Below, piece after piece: positions 4,485 to 49,286 of a stretch of 53,094 nucleotides of DNA. The notes under the pieces are model-generated. The model did no database searches and was not told where the DNA came from. It was given only the letters and a program-made list of their open reading frames with translations. A program made the position numbers and the translations under genes. Location: NCBI GenBank assembly GCA_001795695.1, contig MGKO01000004.1, positions 1-53,094 on the forward strand, given 5' to 3'. Each line of letters begins with the position of its first letter. Position 1 is the first letter of the stretch. The stretch comes from Candidatus Yanofskybacteria bacterium RIFCSPLOWO2_01_FULL_49_17. GTDB taxonomy: Bacteria > Patescibacteriota > Minisyncoccia > 2-02-FULL-40-12 > GWA2-44-9.

Positions 4485-4583
4485 TGTCCCAATACATTGA
4501 TAACCCGCTTTCGCCTATGAGTTACGCCTGCCTGCCTGCCGGCAGGCAGGGACGGACAGGCAAAAAGTGGAGGAGCTGGAGAT
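4484..4583 (+). pseudogene. Duplicated 5' fragment of the transketolase-N gene, disrupted by a palindrome-containing insert
   Basis: ATAATGTCCCAATACATTGATAAC..CAAAAAGTGGAGGAGCTGGAGA matches 5332-5380 (ATAATGTCCCAATATATCGACGATAAAAAAGTGGAAGAGTTGGAAA). It contains a ~55-nt insert and is out of frame afterwards. Confidence 0.7.
4531..4550. repeat. Palindrome CCTGCCTGCCGGCAGGCAGG (P1), intergenic copy
   Basis: Perfect 20-nt palindrome. Confidence 0.95.
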
Positions 4584-5335: not shown

Positions 5336-6228
5336 TGTCCCAATATATCGACGATAAAAAAGTGGAAGAGTTGGAAACGAAGGCTAATGAAGCGCGGGAG
5401 CTTTTGATTGAGATGCTGACGGAGGCGGGGTCGGGGCACACGGCCGGTCCTTTGGGTATGGCCGATATTTTTACGGCATTGTATTTCCATGTCTTGAATC
5501 ACGATCCGAAAAATCCGGAGATGCCGGAGCGGGACAGATTAATTTTGTCCAACGGACACATCACGCCGATACGATATGTTGTGATGGCGATGTCGGGATA
5601 TTTCCCGATTGAAGAATTAAAGACATTGAGAAAATTTGGCACGCGCCTGCAGGGACATCCAGAGCGTGAACGATTACCCGGCGTGGAGACGACCTCCGGA
5701 CCGCTTGGTTCGGGTCTTGGTCAAGCTTGTGGTATCGCCTACGCGGCAAGAATTGACGCTAAGAAATTTAGAACTTATTGTCTGATGTCTGACGGGGAGC
5801 ATGACTCGGGGGCGCTCTGGGAATCAGTCATGTTCGCCGGCAAAAATAAATTATCAAATCTGACGGGTATTATAGACCGCAACAATATCCAGATAGACGG
5901 CATGACCGAGGACGTGATGCCATTGGAAAACCTGCGCGCAAAATACGAGGCATTTAACTGGCACGTTTTAGAAATAGATGGAAATAATATAGAAGCGTTT
6001 GTGGACGCGACACATGAAGCGGCGGCCATCTTTGAGAAACCGACGGTTATCATCGCCCATACTATCCCAGGCAAGGGCATCAAAGAAATTGAGTTTGATT
6101 ACCGCTGGCACGGCATTGTTCCGGGGATGCAGGACGTTCCCGGGGCGCCTTCTAAGGCAGAACAATCTAAAAAATTCTTGGATGAATTACGAACGTTAGG
6201 TGGTAGAATAAAAAGTGAACACCAATAA
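5335..6228 (+). CDS. Transketolase, N-terminal (TPP-binding) subunit
   Basis: Motifs GSGHTAGPLGMADI, LSNGH, SDGEHDSG, IIDRNNIQIDG. Confidence 0.9.
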   Translation: MSQYIDDKKVEELETKANEARELLIEMLTEAGSGHTAGPLGMADIFTALYFHVLNHDPKNPEMPERDRLILSNGHITPIRYVVMAMSGYFPIEELKTLRKFGTRLQGHPERERLPGVETTSGPLGSGLGQACGIAYAARIDAKKFRTYCLMSDGEHDSGALWESVMFAGKNKLSNLTGIIDRNNIQIDGMTEDVMPLENLRAKYEAFNWHVLEIDGNNIEAFVDATHEAAAIFEKPTVIIAHTIPGKGIKEIEFDYRWHGIVPGMQDVPGAPSKAEQSKKFLDELRTLGGRIKSEHQ

Positions 6229-6673: not shown

Positions 6674-7672
6674 ATGTTAAATAGCGAAGCTAAACTAATA
6701 CCAGATATTACTAAACCCGAATATATACCCACCAGAGATGGTTATGGCAAGGGCGTGGTTAAAGCGGGGGATAAAGATGAGCGGGTGGTCGTGCTCTGCG
6801 CCGACCTGACCGAGTCCACCCGGTCTTTGTGGTTCAAAGAGAAATTTCCGTCTCGTTTCATTGAAATGGGGGTGGCCGAGCAGAACCTGGCTTTGGTCGC
6901 CTCGGGTATGGCCAACTACGGCAAGATTCCCTTCATCTCTTCATACGCCACTTTCAGTCCCGGCCGCAACAATGAGCAGATACGGACCAATATCACCATC
7001 AATAATGTGCCGGTGAAGATTGTCGGCGCCCATGCCGGAATTTCCGTCGGTCCCGACGGGGCCACCCACCAAGCGCTAGAAGATATCGCCTTAATGCGGG
7101 TCCAGCCGAGAATGGTTGTGGTAGTGCCATGCGACGCTGTTGAGGCGGAGAAGGCGACTTTCGCCGCGGCATTCAACAATCAACCAACATATATCCGCGT
7201 TGGCCGTGAGAAGTCGCCCGTTTTCACGACTGCCGACACGCCGTTTGAAATAGGAAAGGCAATTGTTTTGAGAGACCTGCCTGCCGGCAGGCAGGCGGCA
7301 AACACCTGTGCGATAATTGGCTGCGGGATGCTTTTGCATAACGCCCTTTTGGCGGCTGAAGAACTAATGAGCGAGGGGATTGAGTGCATGGTCATCAATT
7401 CACATACCGTCAAACCTTTGGATGAAAAAACAATAGTTGAAGCGGCGCAAAAAACCGGAGCGGTGGTAAGCGTGGAGGAGCATCAGATCGCCGGCGGACT
7501 TGGTTCGGTCGTGGCCGAATGCCTGTCCAAAAACTATCCGGTGCCGCAGGAATTCATAGGCATTCAGGACCGTTTTGGAGAATCAGGCAAGTCAGAAGAG
7601 CTTATTGAGGTCTTTGGACTGGGTAAAGAATCAATAAAATCGGCCACCAAGAAAGCTATATCCAGGAAATAA
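6674..7672 (+). CDS. Transketolase, C-terminal subunit, with an in-frame LPAGRQ palindrome
   Basis: Motifs FIEMGVAEQN, GPDGATHQALEDIA, plus the C-terminal domain. Confidence 0.9.
   Translation: MLNSEAKLIPDITKPEYIPTRDGYGKGVVKAGDKDERVVVLCADLTESTRSLWFKEKFPSRFIEMGVAEQNLALVASGMANYGKIPFISSYATFSPGRNNEQIRTNITINNVPVKIVGAHAGISVGPDGATHQALEDIALMRVQPRMVVVVPCDAVEAEKATFAAAFNNQPTYIRVGREKSPVFTTADTPFEIGKAIVLRDLPAGRQAANTCAIIGCGMLLHNALLAAEELMSEGIECMVINSHTVKPLDEKTIVEAAQKTGAVVSVEEHQIAGGLGSVVAECLSKNYPVPQEFIGIQDRFGESGKSEELIEVFGLGKESIKSATKKAISRK
7276..7295. repeat. Palindrome P1 inside tkt-C (encodes LPAGRQ)
   Basis: CCTGCCTGCCGGCAGGCAGG, read in frame as gac CTG CCT GCC GGC AGG CAG gcg. Confidence 0.95.
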
Positions 7673-8352: not shown

Positions 8353-9903
8353 TTAGGATAAAATGCGCGAGTAGTTCAGTGGTAGAACGCCTAACTGATA
8401 ATTAGGAGGTCCCAGGTTCAATCCCTGGCTCGCGCACCACGTTGGAAAAGTCAATGCCTCGCCCCGCCTTCGGCGGGTCTCGGCGACCAAATCGTACGGA
8501 TTTTTCGGGGCAAAAAGAAATTCCCGATTCCGTAAAATATGGTTCGAGCCGATGTTTTTCAGAAATGTTGTCATTTCGGAAAGATTTTCTGATTCAAGCA
8601 GATTAGCGGCTTGATTTAAGGACTTTACGAACTCACGAGCCGGTTCGAGCCAAGACAACCCTTTTGTCTCAAAGTCGGTAATTTTTTCGGTTAACTCGAT
8701 CTTTTGTGAAATGAGAATGTCTTTTTTAGCGGCGTATTCTCGTTGAGTAAGAGCGTCATCGAGATATACGTCAAGCAACTTTTGAAGTTTTGCTTCCATC
8801 TGTGATAATTGCTCTTTGAGATTTATAACTTCACTTTTGGCTTGTTCCTTTGCTTCGGTTTCTTCCGTATCCAACGCCGCCAAAACTTTCTTGGTGTCTT
8901 GGCTCGACAAAGAAACTTTTTGAAGGAAGTTTTTGATTTGAACGATAAGCTGATTTTCACCGAGATACTTTTCTTGGCACGTGCCTCGCTTCTTGGTACA
9001 GCGGTAGTAAGTGTATATACCTCCGTTGCCTTTCGCATATTGCGCAGTTATCGAGCAACCGCACGAGGCGCATTTCATAAGGCCAAGAAAAGGAAAGTTG
9101 TGTTTTCTGTCTGGGCGAATCTTGCCACGCTTAGTCATAACCTCTTGGCACAAATCAAAAAGTTTCTTTGAAATTAACGGCTCGTGTGTTCCCTCAAAAA
9201 CTTCCCCTTTGTATCTCATCAAACCAATGTAAAAGGGATTTTGGAGAATATGCTGAACATTGCTCAATGAGATTTTGTTTCCGGCATTTGTGAGCAGTTT
9301 CTTTTTCTCACACCAATTTGCGAGAGAGTTGAGTGGATATGCTCCGGTGGCGTACATCTCGAAGATTTTTCTCACTAAAGGAGATTTATCTTTATCAACA
9401 TCAATCCCTCTAGTTTTGGGATTATTGGAATATCCTACCGGAGCCCAGCTTGGCCACACTCCATTTCGTATCTTTTGGCGTAGTCCTCTTTTCACATTCT
9501 CTCGCAAATTGTCTACAAAATACTTCGATTGTCCAAAAGCAATGTTCAGCATAAATAATCCTTGCGGCGTTGGCTCAAACCAGAAGCAGGGAAATTTGAG
9601 GGAACGAATCAAGCCGCGATCCACGAAGTGAATAATCTTTCCACCGTCCACAGAATTACGCGCTAACCTGTCGGGGTGCCAAGAGATTATCCCGTCCGCT
9701 TTCCCTTGTTCCAACAATGACAACATTTCTGCGAATTTAATTCGCCCGGGTTCTTTTGCGGTTTTGGCCTCTTGGAAAGAGGCAACAATTTCAAGTTTTT
9801 CTTTGGCGGCAAATTCTTTGAGCTCAACAAGTTGAGCTTCAATGGAGAGAACTTGTCGGTCGTCTTCCTCGGTACTTTTTCTTGCGTAGATAATGTATTT
9901 CAT
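8353..9903 (-). CDS. Large serine recombinase (resolvase catalytic domain + recombinase domain + zinc ribbon + coiled coil)
   Basis: Motifs YARKSTEEDDRQVLSIEAQ (catalytic Ser), DRLARN, CASCGC..YYRC zinc ribbon, and a long coiled coil. The last ~60 codons run through repeat X and the antisense of tRNA-Ile. Confidence 0.85.
   Translation of the reverse strand: MKYIIYARKSTEEDDRQVLSIEAQLVELKEFAAKEKLEIVASFQEAKTAKEPGRIKFAEMLSLLEQGKADGIISWHPDRLARNSVDGGKIIHFVDRGLIRSLKFPCFWFEPTPQGLFMLNIAFGQSKYFVDNLRENVKRGLRQKIRNGVWPSWAPVGYSNNPKTRGIDVDKDKSPLVRKIFEMYATGAYPLNSLANWCEKKKLLTNAGNKISLSNVQHILQNPFYIGLMRYKGEVFEGTHEPLISKKLFDLCQEVMTKRGKIRPDRKHNFPFLGLMKCASCGCSITAQYAKGNGGIYTYYRCTKKRGTCQEKYLGENQLIVQIKNFLQKVSLSSQDTKKVLAALDTEETEAKEQAKSEVINLKEQLSQMEAKLQKLLDVYLDDALTQREYAAKKDILISQKIELTEKITDFETKGLSWLEPAREFVKSLNQAANLLESENLSEMTTFLKNIGSNHILRNREFLFAPKNPYDLVAETRRRRGEALTFPTWCASQGLNLGPPNYQLGVLPLNYSRILS
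8365..8439 (+). tRNA. tRNA-Ile (anticodon GAU), CCA encoded
   Basis: Cloverleaf GCGCGAG/CTCGCGC, anticodon stem CCTAA/TTAGG, loop CTGATAA, T arm CCAGG-TTCAATC-CCTGG, ACCA end. Confidence 0.9.
8440..8533. repeat. Arm X (attL side), inverted copy at 9949-10042
   Basis: 94 nt with 1 mismatch between copies. Contains the hairpin CCCGCC-TTCG-GCGGG. Confidence 0.9.
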
Positions 9904-9925
9904 AGTTTTTTGTTAATTAATGATT

Positions 9926-10214
9926 AAAATTTTTCTTTTCTGCTTCTAACGGAATCGGGAATTTCTTTTTGCCCCGAAAAATCCGTACGATTTGATCGCC
10001 GAGACCCGCCGAAGGCGGGGCGAGGCATTGACTTTTCCAACGTGGTGCAGAATACTTGAATTAGTCCGAACCGCTTTCGCCGCCTGCGGCGGCGAGGAAG
10101 TCCCCCCGCGAAAATCCGGAAAGGCGGCGGAGCCGCACGAATCAAAACCGCAAAAGAACCCGTTAAAAACATCGGCTCGAACCATATTTTGTAGAAGCAG
10201 AAAAGAAAAATTTT
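9926..10214. repeat. Internal attP-like segment bounded by perfect 23-bp inverted repeats
   Basis: The sequence aaaatttttcttttctgcttcta (9926-9948) is the reverse complement of 10192-10214. The interior is X' + TGGTGC + Y + a 26-nt block (10165-10190), and that block is the reverse complement of 8534-8559. Confidence 0.85.
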
Positions 10215-10362
10215 CATAAGGATTCTTAATGCAAGAACTCATCGAGTTTCTTTTTTATTTTGGCTTGATTTTTATTAACATTTCAGCTAATGTAACTTTG
10301 GTATTAAGCTCGATTGTCGGGCTTAAATCGTACATTCCCAACTAAAGAGAGGAGAAATACGC

Positions 10363-11265
10363 ATGGAATTACAAACTGAAGTCGCAGGCATTCGATTGGA
10401 ACATCCACTGATGAACGCAGCGGGAACATGCAAGATGTTGGAGGACGTGAAAGAGCTTTCGCGTTCAGCCACAGCGGCGGTCATGGTCGGCTCAATCACT
10501 GTGGAGCCGAGGACTGGCAACGCTGGCGATGTCTACTGGGCAGGACCGATGTTCTCGCTCAACTCGCTCGGTCTTCCGAATCGCGGTGCGCCGTATTACA
10601 GAGAGGTACTTCCCGAGATGGTCGCGGTGGCTCACGGCGAAGGCAAGCCACTTTTCGTGAGTGTGGCTGGCTTCTCACCAGAGGAGTACACAGACCTCAC
10701 GGAGTTGGCGTTCCGTGGCGGGGCAGACCTCGTGGAGCTGAACCTCGGCTGTCCCAACGTGTGGCAAGGCAGCGCGCAGAAGCGCATCGCGTGTTTCGAT
10801 CCGGCACTGGTCGCAGAAGTGCTACGCCGTGTCGAGGAGAGAGTCGGAGCCGACATGAAAGTTTCGGTCAAGATTTCTCCTTTCTCAGACCCTTTCGCAC
10901 TTGCCGAAGTGGCGCAGGTCATCGGCGCATCGAAAGTGGCGAAGGCCGTCACAACGGTGAACACCTTCCCTAACGCGTTCAGCTACAACGGCGCGAAGCC
11001 GAGAATCACGCCGGGTGGTGGCCTTGCTGGATTCGCCGGACCAGCGATGAAGCCGATCGGTCTCGGACAAGTCAGGCAACTTCGCGGACTTCTCCCGGAG
11101 CACATTCAGATCATCGGTGTCGGTGGCATCACGCACGGTCAGGACATTCAGGAGTATCGCGAGAGCGGTGCAGTAGCAACGCAAGTAGCCACCGCCTATC
11201 TCGAGCGACACGAGCAGGTGTTCAGTTCGTTCCTCGGCGAGCTCCTCGAAGTCGCGAGCGAATGA
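10363..11265 (+). CDS. pyrD: Dihydroorotate dehydrogenase, class 1A-like
   Basis: Motifs NAAGTCK, SLNSLGLPNRG, NLGCPNV (catalytic Cys), KISPF, IIGVGGITHGQD, plus SD GAGAGGAG. The gene is visibly GC-richer than its flanks; the ORF track shows 181-aa and 170-aa shadow ORFs in other frames. Confidence 0.8.
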   Translation: MELQTEVAGIRLEHPLMNAAGTCKMLEDVKELSRSATAAVMVGSITVEPRTGNAGDVYWAGPMFSLNSLGLPNRGAPYYREVLPEMVAVAHGEGKPLFVSVAGFSPEEYTDLTELAFRGGADLVELNLGCPNVWQGSAQKRIACFDPALVAEVLRRVEERVGADMKVSVKISPFSDPFALAEVAQVIGASKVAKAVTTVNTFPNAFSYNGAKPRITPGGGLAGFAGPAMKPIGLGQVRQLRGLLPEHIQIIGVGGITHGQDIQEYRESGAVATQVATAYLERHEQVFSSFLGELLEVASE

Positions 11266-11420
11266 ATCGCTCGCAGAAAATCGTCCCAACGGGACGCACA
11301 TTGGAAACAGTGTACGTCCCCTTTCTTTTTCAAAGAACAAAGAATTTGCCGCCAAGACCGAAATTCGGTAGAATTTCAGTAATCCGAATTCCGCCAAAGA
11401 AAAACTTGAAATTGTCAGCG

Positions 11421-11522
11421 GTGCGGCTCCGCCGCCTTTCCGTCCGCCAGCTGGCGGATTCGCGGGGGGAGTTCCTCGCCGCCACAGGCGGCGAAAGCGG
11501 TTCGGACTAATTCAAGTATTCT
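11421..11522. repeat. Arm Y' (attR side), inverted copy of 10049-10138, carrying a palindrome insertion
   Basis: Reverse complement of Y except for 2-3 substitutions and the 14-nt insert tccgccagctggcg at 11443-11456. Confidence 0.85.
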
Positions 11523-11541
11523 GCACCAGTAGTAAAATTTC

Positions 11542-11614
11542 GGGCCCGTAGCTCAGTTGGTAGAGCACCTCATTTGCAATGAGGGGGTCAGCGGTCCGAA
11601 TCCGCTCGGGTCCA
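11542..11614 (+). tRNA. tRNA-Ala (anticodon UGC), no encoded CCA
   Basis: Acceptor GGGCCCG/CGGGTCC with the G3:U70 identity pair, anticodon loop TTTGCAA, T arm GCGGT-CCGAATC-CGCTC. Confidence 0.9.
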
Positions 11615-11627
11615 CAAAGAATAAAAC

Positions 11628-12680
11628 ATGGCAAATCCGATAAATGTATTGATGGTCATAGTCGGCTTGGCGGTTCTGGTGATGCTCGGCATCAATCTTT
11701 ATTTGATGATTCAGACCCGGCGGAAACAGCAGCAACCCGATGATAAATATCTGGCCATTCACCAGCGCTTTGACGCGCTTTCCCAGGCCGTGAGCGAGCA
11801 ATTGGAGAAAGGCCGGCAGGCATCCGAGCGGGCCACTCTGACCGTCCATCAGCAGGTCCAGAGCTTCACCCAGAATATGACCCAGCTTCAGGAGAACTTG
11901 AAGCAGGTCCACGCCAGCGTCAAAGACGTTTCCTCGTTCCAAGAGATGTTCAAATCGCCAAAACTTAGAGGCATCTGGGGCGAACAGTCGCTAGAGGCCT
12001 CTCTCCAGCAATATTTCTCGCGCGACCTCTATGAGATGCAGCATCACTTCCGCTCCGGTGAGGCGGTTGATGCCGTTCTGAAATTGCCCAACGGCACGCT
12101 ATTGCCTATTGATTCTAAGTTCAATTGGGAGAATTTTGAAAAGATGGTCAATTCAGAAACGGACATGAACCGGGAACTATACCGCAAGGCCTTCTATGGC
12201 GATGTCAAGAAAAAGATAGACGAAATAGCCGCCAAATACATTTTGCCGTCAGAAAGCACGACTGACTTGGCTTTGATGTATGTGCCGGCTGAGACCGTCT
12301 ACTACGAGATAATCAATAACATCAAAGATGCGGATATACCAAGCTATGCCCGGGCCAAGAAAGTATTTTTGGTGTCGCCCAACACATTTGCCTTGTCGGT
12401 CTCGGCCATCAGACATTGGTTCAAGGACATAGAGTTCAACAAACAGACCAAGGATATAATGAAGCGCCTTGAACGCATCGCCACGGACGGCAATAAACTG
12501 GCCGAGGGCTTCCGCAAACTGGGCAGCCATATTTCCAACGCCAAATCGGCCTTTGACGACAGCGAAAAGCGCGTCGGTCTCTTGGTGGACCGCGTGCAAA
12601 ACGTCATTGAGATAGGCGAGTCCGCTTCCAGCGAGGAAGTCAAAAAAATAGATCCGCCAACTGGCAGACCCGTCGCCTAA
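11628..12680 (+). CDS. rmuC: DNA recombination protein RmuC
   Basis: N-terminal TM and coiled coil. Motifs [12 protein letters not shown] and [19 protein letters not shown]. The C-terminal DPPTGR comes from a degenerate palindrome copy at 12653-12668. Confidence 0.8.
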
Positions 12681-14702: not shown

Positions 14703-14907
14703 CCGGCCCAGCCATTCTTCGCTGCGCTCCGCCAATTACCATCCGGCCTCCTCATCCGCCAGCTGGCGGACGCAACAAGGGCAACTCGGTCCGACCTAAG
14801 CGTCGGACCTCAAATACTCTCTCGTTTTGCTATTCGTTGGCTCATCCCTTCGGGACTGCGGATGGTGCCAATTGTCTCCACTACGCTTCAGAATGGCTGG
14901 GCCTTCG
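14703..14907. repeat. Nested palindromic MITE-like element (E3)
   Basis: Terminal repeats are ggcccagccattct (14705-14718) and its reverse complement (14890-14903). Inner pairs are caattaccatccg/cggatggtgccaattg and ggtccgac/gtcggacc. It carries palindrome TCCGCCAGCTGGCGGA at 14755-14770. Confidence 0.6.
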
Positions 14908-14932
14908 CTATTTTTTCAAAAACGTAGCGCAG

Positions 14933-15157
14933 CTAATAGCCCCTCTCACAAACTCTCGGAGGCGGTTTCAGCTCATCAAATAACAGCGTGAGCTGGCCGG
15001 ATGCCATTGAGTCCGTTCGGTTTTGTGAAACAAAACCTCAGGACGAAATAGCCATCGGCATAGACGGCTCCCGCCTTGGGCGGGATGAAACTGCCGAGAG
15101 TGAAGCGTGGAGCTTCGCTGGAAAGCTCCGACGCCGTTTTGTGAGAGGGGCTATTGG
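14933..15157. repeat. MITE-like element E1 with ~21-bp terminal inverted repeats
   Basis: Left TIR ctaatagcccctctcacaaa, right TIR ttttgtgagaggggctattgg. The interior is made of several hairpins. Related to E2 at 23166-23340. Confidence 0.65.
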
Positions 15158-15280
15158 CCGAGCGTTGTCCACATTTTGCTATGTTTTTCCTGTAGGGGTG
15201 TTAAAATTGAGGCAGATATTGGATAAAAGACCCCGCTGGCGCCCTAGAGGTTGCCGGCGTGGCAAAGAAGGGAGGTGCCT

Positions 15281-15967: not shown

Positions 15968-16099
15968 CTTATAGGTGATAGGAAATAGTTTATAGTAAAA
16001 TCATAATCGCGCTGTAAGCGCGATTATGATTTTATCTGGCTATCATCCTATAACCTATAACCTATAACCTATAACCTATAACCTATAACCTATAACCTA
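15968..16099. repeat. H7 hairpin with 7 tandem CCTATAA units and an inner terminator
   Basis: Arm 1 is cttataggtgataggaaatagtttatagt. The inner perfect 16-bp hairpin is at 15997-16033. Arm 2 ends in (CCTATAA)x7 at 16047-16095, running into the pth stop codon. Confidence 0.8.
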
Positions 16100-16847: not shown

Positions 16848-17756
16848 ATGGCTCCGATGTCAAAATCAAAAAAGACATTGGCTCCGTCCAGCATCGTGAC
16901 CAGCCGCGACCCGAAGGGTTTGAAGTTCACTTCCATTCCGGCGATGTCTTACGACAAAGCCCGGCTCTCCGAGGAGGAGGCCCAGCGCCTCAACGACACG
17001 CCAGGTCTGGCCGACCTGATTGACGGTTTCATCGCCAAGAACCGGCGGTTGAACCAGTACGCCAATGAGGAAGTTGGTTCTGGATACGGCTATCCCAAGG
17101 GCTTCAAGCCCAAGGATCCCATGTCACAGTCCAACGATCTGCGTCAGCTCATCGGTGGCATCGGCTTCTTTGATCAGGACTACCTGACGCTCGTGCAGAA
17201 CGGCACGGTCGCCCTGCCGGACGGAGCCGAAGGATGGTTCGCCATCCCGCGGTGGCAGAAGATCGCACCGACGTACAACGAAGCGGTGGAGAAGGTTCTG
17301 GCTCTGATTGCTTCCAAGCGCACGTTCAAGAACTGGCGTGAAGGGCAACTCGGTCCGGATCGGTTCCGACAGCATCCGCGGACGGCGCACGCGCTGGACG
17401 TCATCGCCGAACAGCAGAAGGGCGCGGACATTCTCATCATTCCGGCCCAGTTCGGCCAGCGTCACGCCGGCCGCAGCGTCCGTCGGGCTCGTGAGGTCTT
17501 CACTTCACCCGAGTTCGGTCTCGACGCGTTTAGCAACGCCGTGATGTTGCTGACACACCCGGAGCGCCTCATTGCTTGTGAGGATCTCTGGATCGATTGC
17601 GCTGGTGACGAGTACGCGCCTGCTGCCGATGGCCGGTTCAACGAGGCACCGTACTTCGACTTCTACGTCGGCTGTCTGGGGCTGGACGCGCACGTTGTGG
17701 GCAGTGCGCTCGACTTCTGTGGCTCCGCGTCTGGGTTCGTCCCGCAGGCAGTCTGA
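16848..17756 (+). CDS. DGR variable (target) protein; VR forms the C-terminal 42 codons
   Basis: AAAGGAG precedes ATG 16848, with a second ATG at 16857; the track start at 16752 lies inside the promoter. The C-terminus PAADGRFNEAPYFDFYVGCLGLDAHVVGSALDFCGSASGFVP is encoded by the VR. No N-terminal signal peptide or TM is visible. Confidence 0.8.
   Translation: MAPMSKSKKTLAPSSIVTSRDPKGLKFTSIPAMSYDKARLSEEEAQRLNDTPGLADLIDGFIAKNRRLNQYANEEVGSGYGYPKGFKPKDPMSQSNDLRQLIGGIGFFDQDYLTLVQNGTVALPDGAEGWFAIPRWQKIAPTYNEAVEKVLALIASKRTFKNWREGQLGPDRFRQHPRTAHALDVIAEQQKGADILIIPAQFGQRHAGRSVRRAREVFTSPEFGLDAFSNAVMLLTHPERLIACEDLWIDCAGDEYAPAADGRFNEAPYFDFYVGCLGLDAHVVGSALDFCGSASGFVPQAV
17619..17744 (+). other. DGR variable region (VR)
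   Basis: 126 nt aligned without gaps to TR 18135-18260. There are 18 differences, all at TR adenines. The last 24 nt (ggctccgcgtctgggttcgtcccg) are identical, an IMH-like block. Confidence 0.9.
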
Positions 17757-17851: not shown

Positions 17852-17870
17852 TTATTAATTTTTATATAAT
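17842..17870 (+). promoter_or_regulatory. Candidate promoter for the TR-containing RNA
   Basis: TGGATA, 17-nt spacer, TATAAT. This is the same TGGAYA-17-TATAAT form as the T1 loop promoters. Confidence 0.4.
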
Positions 17871-18134
17871 AAAATTGTTCGGCTTGCGTACAGCGGTCTA
17901 TGGATTTCTGTCGCCGAATTATCTTTCAAGAGGCCAGCCGGAATTCTTGGGGCTACGGTTTCAAGGAGCGTGCTGAATTGAGGAGATACTGCTTGTCTCT
18001 GTCTCGCGCAGATGCTCAGAAGTATACGATGGGCTCCTGCCACATAAAATTCAGGACGAGAGGACATAAGTTGCTTGAGAGCAACAGTAAACTTTGTTAT
18101 CCGGTGATGATAGATGGGCAGAGACAATAAATAA

Positions 18135-18260
18135 CCTGCTGCCGATGGCCAGTTCAACAAGGCACCGTACTTCAACTTCAACGACGACTGTCTGAAGCTG
18201 GACACGAACGATGTGAGCAATGCGAACGACAACTATGGCTCCGCGTCTGGGTTCGTCCCG
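18135..18260 (+). other. DGR template region (TR)
   Basis: Non-coding copy of the VR, rich in AAC/AAG/GAC codons in the VR frame. Contains 30 adenines, 18 of which are substituted in the VR. Confidence 0.9.
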
Positions 18261-18275
18261 AAGTCACTCCTCAAA

Positions 18276-18305
18276 AACAGTGCCTGCTTTCAAGCAGGCA
18301 CTGTT
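18276..18305. terminator. Perfect 12-bp hairpin just 3' of the TR, overlapping the avd stop codon
   Basis: AACAGTGCCTGC-tttcaa-GCAGGCACTGTT. A T-run follows on the minus strand, so it fits an avd terminator. Confidence 0.6.
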
Positions 18306-18654
18306 AAGCCTCTTTAGTAGACCTCAGCCAGCCACCGATTTGCCTTCCCAGTTCATCTATATGAGACTGCAAGATAATATATTTTTTAATGTCCAGAGCT
18401 TTTGTGTCTTTCATAAGTCTGATAAATCCTCTGAGCATACTCACTACTACACTTGTCTCCTCAATGATAGATATCCGTAGTTCTTTTTTGGTTTGTATAG
18501 CTCGGGCGATAAGACGAATAAGCTCCAAGGTGTGTAGCTCTGTCTGTTTCCAAATAGTATATTGGTCTTTGCGCGACATCGTCTCCCGATATTCGCAGAG
18601 GAGTTTATATAGGTCATACGCTTTTCGATAGATAGGGATATCAAATTCATTCAT
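18304..18654 (-). CDS. avd: Avd-like accessory protein (four-helix-bundle / 23S-rRNA-IVS protein family)
   Basis: 116 aa, basic and helical. N-terminal IPIYRKAYDLYKLL and C-terminal ..LQSHIDELGRQIGGWLRS fit the family pattern. Adjacent to TR and RT. Confidence 0.7.
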   Translation of the reverse strand: MNEFDIPIYRKAYDLYKLLCEYRETMSRKDQYTIWKQTELHTLELIRLIARAIQTKKELRISIIEETSVVVSMLRGFIRLMKDTKALDIKKYIILQSHIDELGRQIGGWLRSTKEA

Positions 18655-18758
18655 CCCGTAGGAAATTTAACTGTCCAAGATTTAACCGATACACGGTACC
18701 AGTCAAGACAAGTCACATATAAACTGTTAATAATTAATTTGTAAAAATTTCTGACGGG
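18655..18758. repeat. T2-like TIR element filling the avd/RT divergent spacer
   Basis: Termini CCCGTAGGAAATTT / AAATTTCTGACGGG. Its 104 nt matches the size class of the 105-nt T2 copies. The avd ATG abuts one end; the RT ATG lies 4 nt from the other. Confidence 0.6.
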
Positions 18759-18762
18759 ATTC

Positions 18763-19811
18763 ATGAAGATATATTATGATGTTTTTTCTAAAATAGTTTC
18801 CCTAGAGAGCTTATTTTTAGCATGGCAGGAGTTTCGGAAAGGTAAATCGGCAAAGGAAGATGTTCAACAATTTGAGTTCAATCTGGAGGAAAATATTTTC
18901 CAACTTCACGATGAGTTGGCTAACGGCTTGTATCGTCACGGACCATATGAAGGATTTTTCGTTCACGATCCCAAGCGTAGGCATATTCACAAGGCTTTGG
19001 TCCGAGATCGGGTCGTCCATCACGCTATATTTTCGGTTATCAATCCGATATTTGAGGAAACGTTCATTCCAACATCCTTTTCCTGTCGGGTGGGATTTGG
19101 CGCTCATCGAGGAGTGGCAAGATTGCATCAGATGCTTCGTTCGGTGTCCTGTAACGGAACCAGGTCTTGTTTTGCTTTGAAATGCGATATTAAAAAATTC
19201 TTTGACTCGATAGATCATAATGTCCTGCTGGACCTTATTGGCAACCGAATGAAAGATCCCTCGGCGGGAATTTTGGTGAGCGAAGTTATTAATAGTTACG
19301 CCACGAGAGAGAGAGAGAGAGCAGAAACAGCCACCGAAAAACCGGTTTGCCCATCGGTAACCTGACCAGCCAGCTCTTTGGCAATATCTACATGAACGAG
19401 TTTGATCAGTTCGTAAAGCATAAATTGCGAGTTAAGAATTATTGCCGCTACACAGACGATTTTATCATTGTTTCATCAGAAAAAGAATACTTAGAAGAAC
19501 TGATTCCGAGAATAGAAGCGTTTTTAGGAGAACGGTTGCATTTGAAGTTGCACCCTGCCAAAGTAAGTATCCGTAAGATGGGTCAAGGAGTTGATTTCCT
19601 TGGTTATGTACAATTTCTTAATCATAGATTGTTACGTGTTAAAACCAGACGTCGGATATTTAGGAAATTTAACAATCAAATATTAAAGTATCAGCAGGGC
19701 ATTATTTCTCGCGAAAAATTGAATAGTTCCTTGCAATCTTACCTTGGTGTCTTTGGCCATGCCGATACATTCAGCATTGAACAGGAATTGCTCAATTTAT
19801 TGCCCATTTGA
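18763..19811 (+). CDS. DGR reverse transcriptase, split into two frames at a (GA)8 tract
   Basis: ORF 18763-19365 carries the N-terminal RT motifs (..HIHKALVRDRVVHHAI.., FDSIDH). The frame open from 19296 to 19811 carries GLPIGNLTSQLFGNIYMNEFD (the DGR-type [IL]GxxxSQ motif) and YTDDF. Removing one GA unit fuses both into about 348 aa. Confidence 0.85.
19305..19320. repeat. (GA)8 dinucleotide tract at the RT frame junction
   Basis: gagagagagagagaga followed by g. Confidence 0.95.
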
Positions 19812-20518: not shown

Positions 20519-21811
20519 ATGAAAGCGAAGCAGATTCAATCGGTCAAGGGAATGCACGATATTTTGCCCGAGGACCAGAAGTACTGGCGCTATGTCCAAA
20601 AGAAAGCCGAGCAGCTGCTTGAATACTACGGCTTTGAGAGGATGTCCACACCGGTGCTGGAACAGGCCGAGCTTTTCATTCGCTCGGCCGGCGAGGGTTC
20701 CGATATCGTGGACAAAGAGATCTACACTCTGAAAACGAAGGGCGGGGACACTCTGGCCTTGCGGCCGGAGGCGACCGCTCCAGTTGTGCGCGCTTACCTG
20801 GAGAACGGGATGAACGTCCGTCCTCATCCGGTCAAACTTTACTTGATTGAGCCGATGTTCCGCCATGACGAGCCCCAGGCCGGACGCTACCGCCAATTCC
20901 ATCAGGTCAATGTTGAGACCATCGGTGACGCTTCGGAAGCGGTTGATGCGGAACTTATATTTTTGGGCTACAAACTGCTTGAGTCATTGGGACTTGAAAA
21001 TTTCAATGTCCAGATAAATTCTATCGGCGACCAGAACTGCCGGCCGGCCTATCTCAAGGCCTTGAAAGATTATTTCAAGAACCGCTCCAAGAAACTTTGC
21101 GCTGATTGCAAAGTACGCATGAAAGAAAACGTTCTTCGTATTTTGGACTGCAAAGAGGAGGGATGCAAAGAAGCGGCTAAAGAAGCGCCCCAAATGGTTG
21201 ATTTTCTAGATGAATCTTGCCGACTGCATTTCAAGCACGTCTTGGAATTCTTGGACGAGGCCAAAGTTCCGTACATCTTGAATCCATATTTGGTCCGCGG
21301 TCTGGATTACTACACTCGCACCATATTTGAGTTCGTGCCGGATGAACCGCCAGCTGGCGGAGCGGCCTCGCAGTCAACTCTGCTTGCCGGCGGGAGATAT
21401 GACCGGCTGATTGAACAGCTCGGCGGGGCCAAAACGCCGGCGGCCGGCTGGGCGATTGGCATTGAGCGCATCATTCTGGCCATGAAGGAAAAAGACGTTC
21501 ATGTGCCGGAATCCGGACCTAAGCCGAAAGTGTTTCTAGTCCAGCTTGGCGAGGCACCCAAGCGCAAGGCCCTGCCATTGTTTGAAAGCTTCCGCAAAGC
21601 GGGCATTGAGGCCAAGTCCTCCCTCGGCCGCGACAGCATCAAGTCGCAATTACGCATTGCCCACCGCTTAGACGTAAGATTCGCGCTGATATTCGGCCAG
21701 AAAGAAGCGTTGGAAGGAACCATCATTCTTCGCGACATGGACTCGAGTATCCAGGAAACCATTCCGTTGGAAAAGATCGTGGACGAAGTCAAAAAAAGAT
21801 TAAAGGCATAG
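20519..21811 (+). CDS. hisS: Histidyl-tRNA synthetase with an in-frame PPAGG palindrome
   Basis: Motifs GMHDILP, LRPEATAPVVRAY, FRHDEPQAGRYRQFHQ, RGLDYYT, AGGRYD. Confidence 0.9.
   Translation: MKAKQIQSVKGMHDILPEDQKYWRYVQKKAEQLLEYYGFERMSTPVLEQAELFIRSAGEGSDIVDKEIYTLKTKGGDTLALRPEATAPVVRAYLENGMNVRPHPVKLYLIEPMFRHDEPQAGRYRQFHQVNVETIGDASEAVDAELIFLGYKLLESLGLENFNVQINSIGDQNCRPAYLKALKDYFKNRSKKLCADCKVRMKENVLRILDCKEEGCKEAAKEAPQMVDFLDESCRLHFKHVLEFLDEAKVPYILNPYLVRGLDYYTRTIFEFVPDEPPAGGAASQSTLLAGGRYDRLIEQLGGAKTPAAGWAIGIERIILAMKEKDVHVPESGPKPKVFLVQLGEAPKRKALPLFESFRKAGIEAKSSLGRDSIKSQLRIAHRLDVRFALIFGQKEALEGTIILRDMDSSIQETIPLEKIVDEVKKRLKA
21347..21360. repeat. Palindrome CCGCCAGCTGGCGG (P2) inside hisS
   Basis: Reads CCG CCA GCT GGC GGA = PPAGG, located between the conserved FEF and GGRYD blocks. 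Confidence 0.9.
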
Positions 21812-21981
21812 CTTATCAGCTGACTAGCTTCCTAGCTTATTAGAATGACAGCCATTCACGGATATAAAGAGCTCATTGTATGGCAAAGATCAATGGAACT
21901 TGTGGTAGAGGTGATGAAAATGTTAAATAGTATGATTGGCAAACTAATAAGCTAATAAGCTAATATCTAATAAGCTAAACA
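21812..21981. repeat. H7 hairpin (AGCTAAT family) whose loop holds a gene remnant
   Basis: Arm gcttatcagctgactagcttcctagcttattag and arm ctaataagctaataagctaatatctaataagctaa. Confidence 0.6.
21845..21955 (+). pseudogene. Internally deleted remnant of a four-helix-bundle (23S-IVS/Avd family) gene
   Basis: The 36-aa ORF is MTAIHGYKELIVWQRSMELVVEVMKMLNSMIGKLIS. It combines the family's N-terminal (DLIVWQK..L) and C-terminal (KMLN.LI..L) signatures with the middle missing. Confidence 0.5.
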
Positions 21982-22722: not shown

Positions 22723-23172
22723 ATGTTAAAACAACGATTGCAGGATGAACAAAAGCAGGCACTAAAAGAGGGGAATGGCTCAAAACGTACTCTGATCGGC
22801 ATGGTTCTGTCGGCCGTCAAAAATAAGGAGATAGATAAACATGGCGAACTGACCGATGGTGAAGTCATTGCCGTTATCGCTTCGGAAGTAAAAAAGAGAA
22901 AGGACTCCGCCGCCCAGTTTGAGGGCGGGGGGCGGCCCGAGCTGGCCGAGGGAGAGAGGAAGGAAATTGAGATGCTTATGCCCTATATGCCGGCCCAGCT
23001 TTCCGATGACGCCGTCCGTGAAGAGGTCAAAAAAGCCATTGCCGAGATCGGCGCGGCAGGACCCAAAGACATGGGCAAAGTTATCGCCGCGGTCATGGCC
23101 AAGGTCAAAGGCCAAGCCGAAGGCGGCAAGGTCAGCGCTATGGTCAAAGAAGAACTCACGCTCCGCCAATAG
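22723..23172 (+). CDS. GatB/YqeY domain protein
   Basis: LKQRLQDEQKQALKEG...VKKRKDSAAQFEGGGRPELAEGERKEIEML..YMP..L. The stop codon TAG lies inside the E2 terminal repeat. Confidence 0.8.
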   Translation: MLKQRLQDEQKQALKEGNGSKRTLIGMVLSAVKNKEIDKHGELTDGEVIAVIASEVKKRKDSAAQFEGGGRPELAEGERKEIEMLMPYMPAQLSDDAVREEVKKAIAEIGAAGPKDMGKVIAAVMAKVKGQAEGGKVSAMVKEELTLRQ

Positions 23173-23340
23173 TCCCTCTCGCAAAACGGCGTCAAATCTT
23201 TCCGGCGAAGATTTGCGCCTCACTCTCGCCGGTTCACCAAGCTCCAGCTATGAAATAGCCAATGATTTAATAATATCATTGGCTATTTCAATTATTGAGG
23301 AGCCGAACCGGCTCCGAGAGTTTGCTCTAAGGGCTATTGG
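23166..23340. repeat. MITE-like element E2 (same family as E1)
   Basis: TIRs ccaatagtccctctcgcaaaac / gtttgctctaagggctattgg. 23175-23215 is about 85% identical to the reverse complement of 15112-15150. Contains a perfect 15-bp hairpin at 23252-23289. Confidence 0.65.
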
Positions 23341-23550
23341 CTCCGCTTAAACTTTAGCGAAGCCAGATGGCTTTGAACTAACTTGTGAGTCCAGATTGCA
23401 CGGTTTGTCAATGACCGAGCCCCGCTTTGCGGGACGAGTGTCTTTACAAAATCTGGATGAACAGCGTAGGGAGCGAACCGCGCTGGGACGAGCGACCGAT
23501 AGTGAAAAGCCGTCTGGCGAAGCGATAATTTTATTGATAATATTTAGAAC

Positions 23551-33895: not shown

Positions 33896-34306
33896 ATGCC
33901 AACCTTTAGACAACTTATTAAGAATCCGAGAAAAATGGCCCGAGCGAAAACCAAGTCGCCGGCTTTGACTTTTGGCATCAATACCATTCATAACCGGCCG
34001 GTCTCGTATCCGGCTCCCTTCAAGCGCGGCGTTTGCATCCAGGTCCGGACCATGACTCCGAAAAAGCCGAACTCCGCTTTGCGCAAGATCGCCCGCGTCC
34101 GCCTGACCAACGGCATGGAGGTTACGGCCTATATCCCGGGCATCGGCCACAATCTGCAGGAACACTCGGTAGTCATGCTACGCGGCGGCCGCGTAAAGGA
34201 TTTGCCGGGCGTCCGTTATCATATCGTCCGCGGCGTTCTGGATGCCGGCGGAGTAGAAGGAAGGAAACAGGAGCGTTCCAAATACGGAGCGAAAAAGGGC
34301 AAATGA
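33896..34306 (+). CDS. rpsL: Ribosomal protein S12
   Basis: [33 protein letters not shown]. Confidence 0.95.
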
Positions 34307-34377
34307 TTAGCTTTTTAGCTGATTAGCTTATTAGGGTAACCTAAAAAGCTAGTAAGCTGATAAGCTAGTAAGCTAAA
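34307..34377. repeat. H7 hairpin, AGCTAAT family
   Basis: ttagctttttagctgattagcttattaggg-taa-cctaaaaagctagtaagctgataagctagtaagctaaa, followed directly by the TTG start. Confidence 0.75.
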
Positions 34378-34845
34378 TTGAGACGTCCAGTCAAAAACAG
34401 AATTGAGATAGAGCCCGACCTGAAATATCAGAGCGTTTTGGTTTCCAAGCTCATCAATAAGATAATGAGCCGCGGCAAAAAGGCCTTAGCGACGCATATT
34501 GTTTATCGCGCCTTGGAGATATTAGAGCAGAAGACCAAAAAGCCGGCCTTGGAAGCTCTAGACATCGCCATCAATAACGCCGGACCGAACATGGAATTGA
34601 AATCGCGACGCGTCGGCGGCGCCAATTATCAGATTCCGATAGAGGTCAAACCGGAGCGCAAGACCGCCCTAGCCATCCGCTGGATGATAGAGGCCGCCCG
34701 TTCGGCCAAAGGCAAGCCAATGGAGGAGAAGTTCTCCGAGGAGATGCTGAACGCTTTCAATAACACTGGCGGCGCGGTCAAGAAGAAATTAGACACTCAT
34801 CGCATGGCGGAAGCCAACAAGGCCTTCGCCCATTTCGCCTGGTAA
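34378..34845 (+). CDS. rpsG: Ribosomal protein S7 (TTG start)
   Basis: S7 pattern: KLINKIMSRGKK..A..IVY.AL, and ANYQIPIEV. Confidence 0.9.
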   Translation: MRRPVKNRIEIEPDLKYQSVLVSKLINKIMSRGKKALATHIVYRALEILEQKTKKPALEALDIAINNAGPNMELKSRRVGGANYQIPIEVKPERKTALAIRWMIEAARSAKGKPMEEKFSEEMLNAFNNTGGAVKKKLDTHRMAEANKAFAHFAW

Positions 34846-34920
34846 GTAATCAGCTTCTTAGCTGATTAGCTGACTAGGGCAACCTAAGAAGCTAGTAAGC
34901 TGATAAGCTAGTAAGCTAAG
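34846..34920. repeat. H7 hairpin, AGCTAAT family
   Basis: Close relative of 34307-34377. Ends ..gctagtaagctaag followed by TTG. Confidence 0.75.
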
Positions 34921-37025
<2,105 letters not shown>

Positions 37026-41867: not shown

Positions 41868-41932
41868 AAACTAGGAAATAGGTTATAGGAAATAGCTGTA
41901 ACCTAAAATCCTATAACCTATAAGCTAATAAT
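41868..41932. repeat. H7 hairpin (ATAGG / CCTAT family)
   Basis: A 13-nt core ataggttatagga pairs with tcctataacctat, flanked by heptamer-periodic sequence. Ends 9 nt before the ATG. Confidence 0.7.
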
Positions 41933-42286: not shown

Positions 42287-42352
42287 TTAGCTTATAGGAA
42301 ATAGGTGATAGAAAAACTATAACCTAAAATCCTAAAACCTAAAACCTAGAAG
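42287..42352. repeat. H7 hairpin (ATAGG / CCTAA family)
   Basis: cttataggaaataggtgatag .. ctataacctaaaatcctaaaacctaaaacctag. Confidence 0.65.
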
Positions 42353-44298: not shown

Positions 44299-44547
44299 AT
44301 GACTACCAATCAATCACAACCGAGAAAATTGCAGGGTCTGGTCACTTCCGATAAAATGACCAAAACGGTGGTGGTTTCGGTTACCCGCATGAAGAAGCAT
44401 CCCAAGTATAAGAAATTCTTCAAAGTGACCGCCAAGTTCAAAGCCCACAATCCAGATAACGCCTATCACACCGGCGATAAGGTCATCATTCAGGAAACCA
44501 GGCCTATGTCAAAAGAAAAACGCTGGCTAGTCATCAGTAAACTTTAA
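44299..44547 (+). CDS. rpsQ: Ribosomal protein S17 (follows L16 directly; no L29 gene in between)
   Basis: [26 protein letters not shown] and GD.V.I.E.RP.SK.K.W. Confidence 0.9.
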
Positions 44548-44628
44548 AGCTTATTAGCTTCTTAGCTTATCAGCTGATTAGGGCAACCTAATAAGCTAGT
44601 CAGCTAGGAAGCTAATCACCTAAAAAAT
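44548..44628. repeat. H7 hairpin, AGCTAAT family
   Basis: gcttattagcttcttagcttatcagctgattaggg-caa-cctaataagctagtcagctaggaagctaatc. About 30 bp, imperfect, with G:U pairs. Confidence 0.75.
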
Positions 44629-44994
44629 ATGTTGCAACTACGTTCAATAGTAGAAGTGGCGGACAATTCAGGCGCAAAACGCGTCGGCATTTTCAAAGTG
44701 CTTGGCGGCTCGCGCCGGCGCTACGCCCAGATCGGAGACATTGTCGTCGCTTCGGTCAAAGTGGCCGAGCCGCGCAAAAGCGTCAAGAAAAAAGATGTGG
44801 TGAGGTGCGTCGTTGTCCGCCAGAGAAATCCCTACCGCCGCAAGGACGGCACTTATGTCCGTTTTGACGCCAACGCGGTGGTTCTGTTGGACGGCATGGA
44901 GCCCAAAGGCGGACGCATCTTCGGACCGATACCGAGGGAAATTAAAGAAAAAGGGTTTAACACGATTGCTTCGCTCGCTAGCGAACTTGTATAA
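44629..44994 (+). CDS. rplN: Ribosomal protein L14
   Basis: ADNSGAK....KVLGGS.RRYA.IGD. Confidence 0.95.
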   Translation: MLQLRSIVEVADNSGAKRVGIFKVLGGSRRRYAQIGDIVVASVKVAEPRKSVKKKDVVRCVVVRQRNPYRRKDGTYVRFDANAVVLLDGMEPKGGRIFGPIPREIKEKGFNTIASLASELV

Positions 44995-48742: not shown

Positions 48743-49219
48743 ATGGAATTACATAATCTACAACCGAATACGCCCCGCAAGTACGGCAAGCGCGTCGGGC
48801 GCGGCGGCAAGCGCGGCACCACTTCCGGTAAAGGCACCAAGGGCCAGAAGTCGCGGGCCGGCGCCGGCGTCAAACCCGGTTTCCGCGGTGGCGACAACCG
48901 CTTGTGGCAGCTTTTCCCCAAGCAGAGGGGAGCTTCAAAGAAGCCCGGCTCTAACCGGCCGCACCGCAAACATCGCTTCTATCAGCTTCGCCACGACAAA
49001 TCCGCCGTTATAAATCTTGATGTCCTTAATCAGTTTGCCGAGGGCACCCTGGTCACCCCGGAACTATTGCTTGAAAAAGGCGTTATCATTAATACCGATA
49101 AAGGCGTGAAGATCTTGAGCGATGGAAACCTGAACCGCAAGCTGGAGTTCAAGGGCTTTGATTTCTCGGCTTCGGCCAAAGAGAAAATAATTGCTGCCGG
49201 AGGCAGCATCAGCAGCTAG
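48743..49219 (+). CDS. rplO: Ribosomal protein L15
   Basis: RVGRGGKRGTTSGKGTKGQKSR and GF.GG. Confidence 0.95.
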   Translation: MELHNLQPNTPRKYGKRVGRGGKRGTTSGKGTKGQKSRAGAGVKPGFRGGDNRLWQLFPKQRGASKKPGSNRPHRKHRFYQLRHDKSAVINLDVLNQFAEGTLVTPELLLEKGVIINTDKGVKILSDGNLNRKLEFKGFDFSASAKEKIIAAGGSISS

Positions 49220-49286
49220 CTTTTTAGCTGATTAGCTTATTAGGGTAACCTAAAAAGCTAGTAAGCTAGTAAGCTAATAAGCTAGA
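49220..49286. repeat. H7 hairpin, AGCTAAT family
   Basis: The 5' arm and loop are identical to 34311-34358. Ends ..taagctaga followed by TTG. Confidence 0.75.

Follow-up and report, generated by a model that had tools for sequence, protein, structure and literature searches.

The window, by which we mean the whole 53,094-nt stretch of DNA analysed here, belongs to a Patescibacteria (CPR) genome near Candidatus Yanofskybacteria and carries a 3.1-kb insert between the genes for tRNA-Ile and tRNA-Ala (8365-11615), which in a sister species are separated by only 13 nt (L009, 2137-2300). Reading along the window, the order is the 3′ end of tRNA-Ile (GCACCA), arm X, a large serine recombinase gene on the minus strand, arm X′, an inverted GCACCA, arm Y, pyrD, arm Y′, GCACCA and tRNA-Ala. 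In this arrangement the ends of the insert look like attL and attR, with a putative inverted attP-like X′-core-Y junction inside, and the insert as a whole is reminiscent of an integrative element that carries cassettes or can invert. Many groundwater contigs share the recombinase module at 73-86% conservation, while the gene between the Y arms varies; guessing the cargo between arm pairs from the longest ORF gave mostly spurious ORFs and was abandoned. The 3′ end of a 16S rRNA gene (1-374) lies 8 kb upstream of tRNA-Ile (8365-8439) with about ten protein genes between them, and there is no 23S rRNA gene within 41 kb after tRNA-Ala (11542-11615); the rRNA operon is split up or unlinked. The features of the two Y arms are as follows.

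10043-10138, minus strand: arm Y, the inner inverted copy of the same arm as Y′, adjoining X′
10112-10115, unstranded: the ‘empty’ site in arm Y, AATC (GATT when read from the opposite strand); TCCGGA lies at 10115-10120
11421-11528, plus strand: arm Y′, the outer end of the serine-recombinase integrative element, adjoining tRNA-Ala

Y and Y′ are inverted arms on either side of pyrD, and apart from one site they are about 97% identical over ~100 nt. A global alignment places CCTTTCCG joined directly to GATTTTCGCGGGG in the reverse complement of Y against CCTTTCCG TCCGCCAGCTGGCG GATTCGCGGGG in Y′, reproducing the strings of a first-pass annotation of this DNA, which had described near-identical arms that differ by one palindrome. 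Specifically, the variable site reads CCTTTCCG-GATT-TTCGCG in the reverse complement of Y and CCTTTCCG-TCCGCCAGCTGGCGGA-TTCGCG in Y′. The change can be written as +14 nt and −2 T or, equally, as +16 and −4 nt, with a net gain of 12 nt either way. The ‘14 extra nt’ counted in the first pass is one valid description but not a unique one, and the event found across the arm family is a 16-nt hairpin in place of 4 nt.

We collected related arms in a metagenome scan using the arm’s flanking anchors, which are invariant by construction of the search, and found them on at least 118 contigs, mostly from Rifle and Hainich groundwater CPR assemblies. Among the matches listed, the site is 4 nt long (AATT or GATT) in 126 of 134 arm copies, and ~96% of the arms are empty overall. 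The states of the site among these matches are given here.

AATT: 111 copies
GATT: 15 copies
Other single 4-mers (AGTT, AATC, GGTT): 3 copies
TCCGCCAGCTGGCGGA: 2 copies
TCCGCCAGTTGGCGGA: 1 copy
TCCGCCAGCCGGCGGA: 1 copy
Nested form, TCCGCCAGTTGGCGGA between TCCGCC and TGGCGGA: 1 copy

The hairpin TCCGCC-NNNN-GGCGGA thus fills ~4% of the arms among the matches listed, each time on a different arm background; B-like 16-mers in these matches comprise only 4 sequences in 5 copies, the nested one besides. The usual empty state is CCG-AATT-TTCG, and TCCGGA appears only in the GATT minority of the same matches; it is not the general target. Outside the site, each filled arm has its nearest relatives among the empty arms (95.7-98.8% identity) rather than among the other filled ones, in the matches listed; this one spot therefore either received inserts several times or was overwritten by short conversion tracts, and the repeated gains here could reflect short-patch gene conversion between arms instead of independent insertions. 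The nearest relative of Y′ among the matches listed is the window’s own Y (97.5%), and the gain in Y′ is therefore very recent. On these alignments, we take the palindrome at Y′ to be a real gain.

Other properties of the arms are less distinctive. In a scan of 8.3-15.3 kb the Y arms had no Rfam match at E ≤ 1, and only two tRNAs in the window reached the gathering score; over the tRNA genes the other matches were weak, antisense matches to RF04354 below gathering. RNAalifold applied to 51 arms places the site in a loop, with covariation support absent, and the DNA folding z-scores of the arms are unremarkable. The Y arm also has a second variable hairpin site (11470-11495 and 10075-10100 in the window; columns 58-90 of alignment A1). 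Its minimal form is CTTCCTCGCC-GAAATG and its common form has 12 more nt, giving CGCCGCC-GCA-GGCGGCG; other arms have different hairpins with compensatory stems there (e.g. CGCCCCG..CGGGGCG) or a TTTTCCGGAAAA palindrome.

The palindrome gained in Y′, hereafter B, is the 16-mer TCCGCCAGCTGGCGGA, with a TCCGCC/GGCGGA stem around a 4-nt centre. A pattern search of the window, together with reading of the sequence, confirmed the four copies that had been noted before, two of them exact and two variant.

11443-11458, unstranded: B copy 1, TCCGCCAGCTGGCGGA, the ‘filled’ site of arm Y′, in place of the 4-nt GATT/AATT
14755-14770, unstranded: B copy 2, exact, intergenic, 60 nt downstream of the H+-pyrophosphatase stop codon
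21346-21361, plus strand: B copy 3, ACCGCCAGCTGGCGGA (1 mismatch), in hisS, read in-frame as PPAGG, net +12 nt
12653-12668, plus strand: B copy 4, degenerate, TCCGCCAACTGGCAGA (2 mismatches), at the 3′ end of rmuC, read as PPTGR (C-terminus DPPTGR), net +12 nt

These are the 4 matches with up to 3 mismatches in the window, where 0.24 are expected, and none of 100 shuffles reached 4. The hisS copy retains a perfect 14-nt palindrome at 21347-21360. Of the eight perfect palindromes of at least 16 nt in the window, seven belong to the B family or to a CCTGCC..GGCAGG family (A, described below). There is no excess of solo half-sites or partial copies of B in the window, which supports treating the palindrome copies as discrete units. 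We also considered that B is an intrinsic terminator (a GC hairpin followed by a U-tract) and dropped this reading because no T-run follows the copies at 11443, 14755 and 21346; the rmuC copy scores as a terminator on the antisense strand only, owing to adjacent Lys codons. The spacer that holds the copy at 14755 is about 560 nt here versus about 97 nt in the sister species L009, and at ~460 nt longer it leaves no orthologous empty site for that copy. Positions 14726 and 23160 share a GCTCCGCCAAT motif, and another repeat family, with inverted copies of ~45-77 nt at 74-82% identity, occupies 14926-15165 and 23158-23347, in two enlarged intergenic regions that are missing from the sister species. 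A diversity-generating retroelement (bAvd plus reverse transcriptase) lies at 17855-19811; its reverse transcriptase is split into overlapping ORFs (18763-19365 and 19347-19811) and is probably frameshifted, and the repeat pair 17619-17753 / 18135-18269 (84% identity) may be its variable repeat (VR) and template repeat (TR).

The coding copies provide two further comparisons of filled and empty sites. The histidyl-tRNA synthetase (HisRS) of species 87-91% identical (L008 and L009) reads FEFVPDE-NAG-SQSTLLAGGRYD, whereas that of the window reads FEFVPDE-PPAGGAA-SQSTLLAGGRYD; the best named match is Ca. Yanofskybacteria RIFCSPLOWO2_02_FULL_47_9b (87% identity). The insert is kept intact in a strain with 93.6% nucleotide identity (L452). 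RmuC relatives end in ...EEVKKIEPPVA, without the window’s insert; at the DNA level a relative (L455) reads GAA CCG followed directly by CCC GTT GCG, and the window reads GAT CCG CCA ACT GGC AGA CCC GTC GCC, an insert of 12 nt (CCA ACT GGC AGA) between CCG and CCC. All three comparable B sites (Y′, hisS and rmuC) are thus net +12 nt. In hisS and rmuC this keeps the frame, and the copies are translated (PPAGG, PPTGR). A multiple of three is expected from selection at the two coding sites, but the non-coding Y′ has the same +12. Together with the ~96% of related arms that are empty among the matches listed, the HisRS and RmuC relatives without the insert bear out the earlier view that the palindrome is gained as a unit.

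The site of the hisS insert is a variable surface loop of HisRS. In other Paceibacteria (P0035, P0042, P0048, P0073, P0100 and others) the loop between FEF and GGRYD (window 21330-21390) has other lineage-specific inserts, low-complexity peptides such as PSNSSGQGG and PSTGSGQAPSTGS... of up to ~40 aa; this loop is a general sink for GC-rich insertions.

A second palindrome, A, is the 20-mer CCTGCCTGCCGGCAGGCAGG. It has five copies in the window, four of them in genes, and all four of these read (L/M)PAGRQ.

4527-4550, unstranded: A, (CCTG)3CCGG(CAGG)2, intergenic
7276-7295, plus strand: A in the gene for the transketolase C-terminal subunit (DLPAGRQA), +21 nt relative to L009
16633-16652, minus strand: A, register-shifted, in pth (DLPAGRQG), +21 nt relative to L008 and L009
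23664-23683, plus strand: A in ybeY (GLPAGRQ), +21 nt relative to L008 and L009
39561-39582, plus strand: A, degenerate, in rplC (AAMPAGRQ), seen in the window sequence alone

Within the window, then, 4 of the 5 A copies and 2 of the 4 B copies lie inside ORFs and are translated. Aligned codon by codon with the two sister species, pth, ybeY and the gene for the transketolase C-terminal subunit each have 7 extra codons. By our own reading of these three genes, whose orthologues are 72-80% identical at the nucleotide level, excising exactly 20 nt appears to restore the orthologous flank save for a 1-nt indel within ~10 nt; in the transketolase gene without A, GGCAAA would then be read one frame off. 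Neither A nor B is present in 14-21 kb of syntenic DNA from the sister species, versus 9 copies in the window, which indicates recent, lineage-specific activity.

Filled and empty pairs of A sites elsewhere (L049, L118 and L016) differ by exactly 20 nt, with no duplication and no loss. In L049 and L118 the pair consists of a truncated 5′ tRNA copy beside an intact tRNA, and in L016 of a tandem repeat. De novo growth of the palindrome from a local CCGG or AGCT seed was rejected, since the seed is absent from these exact pairs and the same 20-mer recurs. Among the matches listed, the flanks of 123 A copies have only a weak bias (A at −1/−3, T at +1), and flank identity is 0-1 nt in 108 of the 123; 7-nt direct repeats occur in 4 copies, within tandem heptamer tracts. 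Extension of the palindrome past 20 nt is no commoner than chance predicts (79 copies stop at 20 nt, 32 reach 22 nt), and ~80% of the A copies elsewhere are intergenic, both among the matches listed; in long ORFs the LPAGRQ frame is dominant. A is found at D-arm, anticodon-arm and variable-loop positions of tRNAs, in genomes and in phages.

Two other features recur around A. Small genes for GIY-YIG nucleases have been inserted at tRNA genes, with a second copy of the 5′ part of the tRNA upstream of them (L049 2080-2490, L118 3660-4070, L130 ~5900-6140, and L097), and in several independent lineages A sits in the duplicated tRNA fragment. The window itself has intergenic inverted arrays of 7-8-nt tandem units (TTAGCTNA / TAAGCTAG around GGGTAACC; CTATAAC runs) between translation and ribosomal genes, at 21809-21962, 34298-34382, 34841-34925, 44537-44629 and 49207-49299 and also at 16035-16099, 41891-41927 and 42312-42348; in other genomes A is often inside similar heptamer tracts.

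Both palindromes are spread far beyond this genome. At least 120 GTDB species have the A 20-mer, where about 0.5 would be expected; they include many classes of Patescibacteria, Bacteroidota, Omnitrophota, Planctomycetota, Gammaproteobacteria, Bdellovibrionota and Chloroflexota as well as Nitrospirota-like (Thermodesulfovibrio-like) lineages. The Bacteroidota include the cultured Winogradskyella echinorum, Flagellimonas yonaguniensis, Longitalea luteola and Flavivirga sp., and a closed Flagellimonas chromosome. In a viral collection A is present in 35 stretches, versus none for a composition-matched shuffled palindrome. Identical B copies are found in Patescibacteria, in one gammaproteobacterial MAG and in phages; low-GC phage DNA has 15, versus 2 for the shuffled control, while B in GC-rich phages, which make up about half of the viral B matches, is at a chance-like level. 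The two palindromes also keep company: in 846 kb around the listed A copies there are 8 occurrences of B’s 12-nt core, in 7 loci, versus 0.05 expected (~150-fold enrichment), as the full 16-mer in all 8 and once only 8 nt from A. A and B are on one phage contig in only 1 of 55 cases, and a common vector is accordingly not demonstrated. No exact A or B is present in PLSDB plasmids or INPHARED phages. Identical copies come from independent assemblies (ENA, JGI and Logan). The larger result is that B is one of a pair of cross-phylum micro-palindromes: the ‘within-genome’ filled and empty pair reported at first is real, but its scope is wider, as one of two sequence-identical micro-palindromes found over many phyla. 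Within the literature searched, we found no description of A, B or the peptides LPAGRQ and PAGRQ. Other perfect palindromes were seen along the way, including eight tandem copies (period ~44 nt) of GGGACAGGTCGCGACCTGTCCC in a Bacteroidota-type locus (L124, 1890-2220) and an 18-nt palindrome with core CCGATAGCTATCGG common to three loci, of which the L074 version, TCCCGATAGCTATCGGGA, has the B-like architecture TCC...AGCT...GGA.

To judge what these elements are, it matters which part of them is maintained. Among the arm copies the 4-nt centre varies (AGCT, AGTT, AGCC) with the TCCGCC/GGCGGA stem intact. At one phage locus a 16-nt palindrome occupies the same position in all 24 relatives, with only two one-arm variants, and its alleles differ by symmetric changes (TCCGTCCATGGACGGA, TCCGCCCATGGGCGGA, TCCGCCAGCTGGCGGA, TCCTTCCATGGAAGGA, CCCGCCAGCTGGCGGG); none of the 24 is empty, all being filled with different palindromes, and some have a CATG centre, with the stem kept and CAGCTG lost. 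Retention of the stem while CAGCTG is lost favours a hairpin and disfavours a restriction-site role. It is thus the stem that is kept up, through selection or through template switching from arm to arm. Insertion also favours hairpins: 9 of 27 low-GC B copies lie at the apex of a longer perfect palindrome, extended by at least 3 nt, versus 0.4 expected, and nested copies occur as A in A (L030, L054) and as B in B (L206).

We favour a reading in which micro-palindromes are mobilised in trans, moved by a sequence-specific enzyme, and we give this about an even chance of being right. B is a discrete 16-nt self-complementary unit pasted into DNA whole, with recent additions in this genome to the outer arm of the serine-recombinase element (between tRNA-Ile and tRNA-Ala), the HisRS loop, the RmuC C-terminus and an intergenic spacer, and A and B make up a small group of micro-palindromes, identical in sequence wherever found, that occur together across many phyla and in phages. 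Insertion leaves no target-site duplication and favours the loops or apex of existing hairpins, including tRNA arms and the elements’ own copies. A hairpin-forming single strand would be copied and pasted by a trans-acting enzyme carried on mobile DNA, for which an HUH/Y1-type ssDNA transposase is the nearest model, and its target may be DNA at replication forks that is single-stranded or folded into a hairpin. The arms may then be kept complementary through intrastrand template switching, selection on the stem, or both, and selection would purge coding insertions save those with a restored frame, by 16−4 = 12 for B and 20+1 = 21 for A. What we infer in this scheme is the enzyme, the intermediate in single-stranded form and the part played by template switching.

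Several observations weigh against an enzyme. Pfam calls for 20 window ORFs, together with precomputed calls for the genes at ~10.5-31.8 kb (coverage that reaches to ~35 kb), contain no methyltransferase or restriction enzyme and no candidate transposase or nuclease, and Y1_Tnp in particular has no match among them. In the annotated surroundings of A copies elsewhere no candidate mobiliser is consistently present; the GIY-YIG mini-genes were set aside as candidates, since a regex search placed them beside only ~4 of 125 A copies among the matches listed. This lack of an enzyme, in the annotated parts of the window and consistently near copies, counts against the enzymatic reading, as does the lack of exact copies in cultured plasmid and phage collections. 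REP/RAYT families are species-specific and not identical across phyla, which argues against REP-type mobilisation, and the loss of 4 target nt suggested at two B sites is not predicted by HUH transposition. Other readings are available at Y′, as +14 nt plus an independent loss of 2 T, and at rmuC, as a simple insertion of 12 nt behind a (T)CCG that was already there. The small changes at the targets (replacement of 4 nt, 1-nt indels close by) are explained no less well by a route through repair or template switching.

The strongest competitor is such a route, that is, copying and pasting with no dedicated enzyme, which we consider distinctly less probable than mobilisation in trans. During replication or repair, a nascent strand would stall at a hairpin or AT-rich tract, take another copy of the palindrome elsewhere as its template, copy it and return (ectopic template switching or short-patch gene conversion), and new phyla would be seeded by ordinary horizontal transfer of copy-bearing DNA. 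Intrastrand template switching classically yields perfected palindromes and arms that change symmetrically, hairpin apices and nested targets are replication stall sites, and no enzyme was found in the ORFs and surroundings scanned. This route would also account for the few target bases replaced or shifted (4 nt in both Y′ and hisS, with 1-nt indels no more than ~10 nt from the three coding A copies) and for the rmuC insert, which starts immediately after a pre-existing (T)CCG that matches the element’s own start. However, the elements have clear-cut ends: each of the 8 secondary B copies is a complete 16-mer, A exceeds 20 nt only at the chance rate, and partial copies are not in excess. The three exact filled and empty A pairs have no microhomology requirement, and the spread of the same two sequences in so many phyla, with none for the shuffled control, is hard to explain in this way.

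It is improbable that A and B are instead functional sites under selection (a protein binding site, an RNA-stabilising or processing hairpin, or a DNA-uptake-type signal) that spread by gene conversion and horizontal transfer. Palindromic protein sites that cross phyla do exist, parS being an example, and a conserved stem with a variable loop, a hisS copy of B intact in a diverged strain and the presence of ComEC in the window are what such a function might leave. Yet copies lie in essential coding regions, truncated tRNA fragments, other copies and phages with no positional logic relative to genes, and sister species with the same genes carry none. Uptake and HIP-type motifs build up by point substitution, not by clean insertions of 16 or 20 nt, and the ~80% of A copies that are intergenic among the matches listed are as predicted by purifying selection against a nuisance insert.

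Enrichment linked to restriction-modification or methylation (HIP1-like), centred on CAGCTG and GCCGGC, is very improbable. The centres of B and A are PvuII- and NaeI-type sites, and GCCGGC is 6.5-fold over-represented in the window (82 observed versus 12.7 expected from base composition); this excess probably reflects codon usage (GCC-GGC, Ala-Gly), unconnected with the 20-mer. CAGCTG is neither over- nor under-represented (15 versus 12.9 expected), the AGTT, AGCC and CATG variants break it and keep the stem, the sites are created by insertion and not by substitution, and the annotated parts of the window hold no methyltransferase or restriction enzyme; the first-pass idea of a system that recognises CAGCTG is weakened. 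Chance similarity, unrelated ordinary indels or an assembly or library artefact can be regarded as effectively refuted: short GC-rich palindromes do arise in GC-rich DNA, and about half of the viral B matches look random, but the shuffle statistics, the 0 matches of the control palindrome, identical copies in independent ENA, JGI and Logan assemblies, A in cultured isolates and a closed chromosome, and frames preserved in five housekeeping genes all speak against it.

Known systems share some of these properties. The nearest precedent is the REP/BIME/REPIN group (RAYT, IS200/IS605-type Y1), whose short (20-40 nt), GC-rich hairpin repeats occur in many copies per genome with no target-site duplication and are thought to move as a single-stranded hairpin via a trans-acting enzyme. 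However, a REP is an imperfect palindrome with an asymmetric 5′ head (GTAG/GTGG type), whereas A and B are perfect, loop-less and headless; REPs are extragenic, and A and B also lie inside genes and tRNA fragments; REPs are specific to a species or genus and accompany a RAYT gene, whereas A and B are identical across phyla and phages, with no RAYT seen in the annotated parts of the window. MITEs, derivatives of DDE transposons, have terminal inverted repeats and a fixed-length target-site duplication, and neither the A pairs nor the B sites (net +12 nt) show one. Rickettsia palindromic elements (RPE) are similar in being in-frame in conserved protein-coding and RNA genes and translated as an extra surface peptide, but they are 100-150 bp and confined to Rickettsiales, whereas B has 16 nt, A has 20 nt and both are found in many phyla.

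Small GC-rich hairpins that invade AT-richer genomes are also known from Volvox organelles (PMC2670323), sponges (PMC2800124), the coding palindromes of Nematomorpha (PMC6649704) and the GC clusters of yeast mitochondria. Such organellar hairpins likewise enter coding and tRNA/rRNA regions, often at existing hairpins or other copies, with no enzyme identified; they are lineage-specific, usually longer and variable in sequence, whereas A and B are bacterial or phage-borne and fixed in sequence. HIP1 (GCGATCGC, cyanobacteria) and USS/DUS resemble A and B as over-represented short (near-)palindromic words that also occur in genes with preferred frames, but they are lineage-restricted and arise from point substitution or biased conversion, whereas A and B arise from clean insertion; HIP1 is, in addition, octamer-scale and methyltransferase-linked, whereas B’s CAGCTG core is not enriched and centre variants are tolerated. 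Quasipalindrome template-switch mutagenesis (the Ripley model; E. coli) copies a mutation in one arm to the other, as at the phage locus, but it perfects a local inverted repeat and does not on its own explain how one fixed 16- or 20-mer reaches unrelated sites and phyla. A and B work like REPs, RPEs and the organellar GC-cluster hairpins, but they fall outside the definitions of REP, MITE, RPE and HIP1.

Overall, the reading of B as a unit gained whole is right; the target and restriction-system details of the earlier reading are not. We tentatively propose, as a possibility that we think somewhat less probable than its being mistaken, that A and B represent a previously undescribed class of pan-bacterial ‘micro-transposons’: fixed 16-20-nt hairpins pasted into DNA hairpin loops by a horizontally mobile enzyme or by a universal replication or repair activity, with targets that would include essential and tRNA genes in phyla as far apart as Patescibacteria, Bacteroidota and Planctomycetota, and in their phages. 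Should they prove truly mobile, no smaller sequence-defined mobile unit would be known in bacteria, and they would be among the few to cross phylum boundaries unchanged. Their filled and empty pairs offer clean material for defining the chemistry of insertion, and the cultured Bacteroidota with A make the question open to experiment. In MAG gene calls the two palindromes are a source of frameshift plus compensation and a potential strain-resolving marker. For the organism itself, A and B add peptide loops to the essential proteins HisRS, Pth, YbeY, transketolase, L3 and RmuC.
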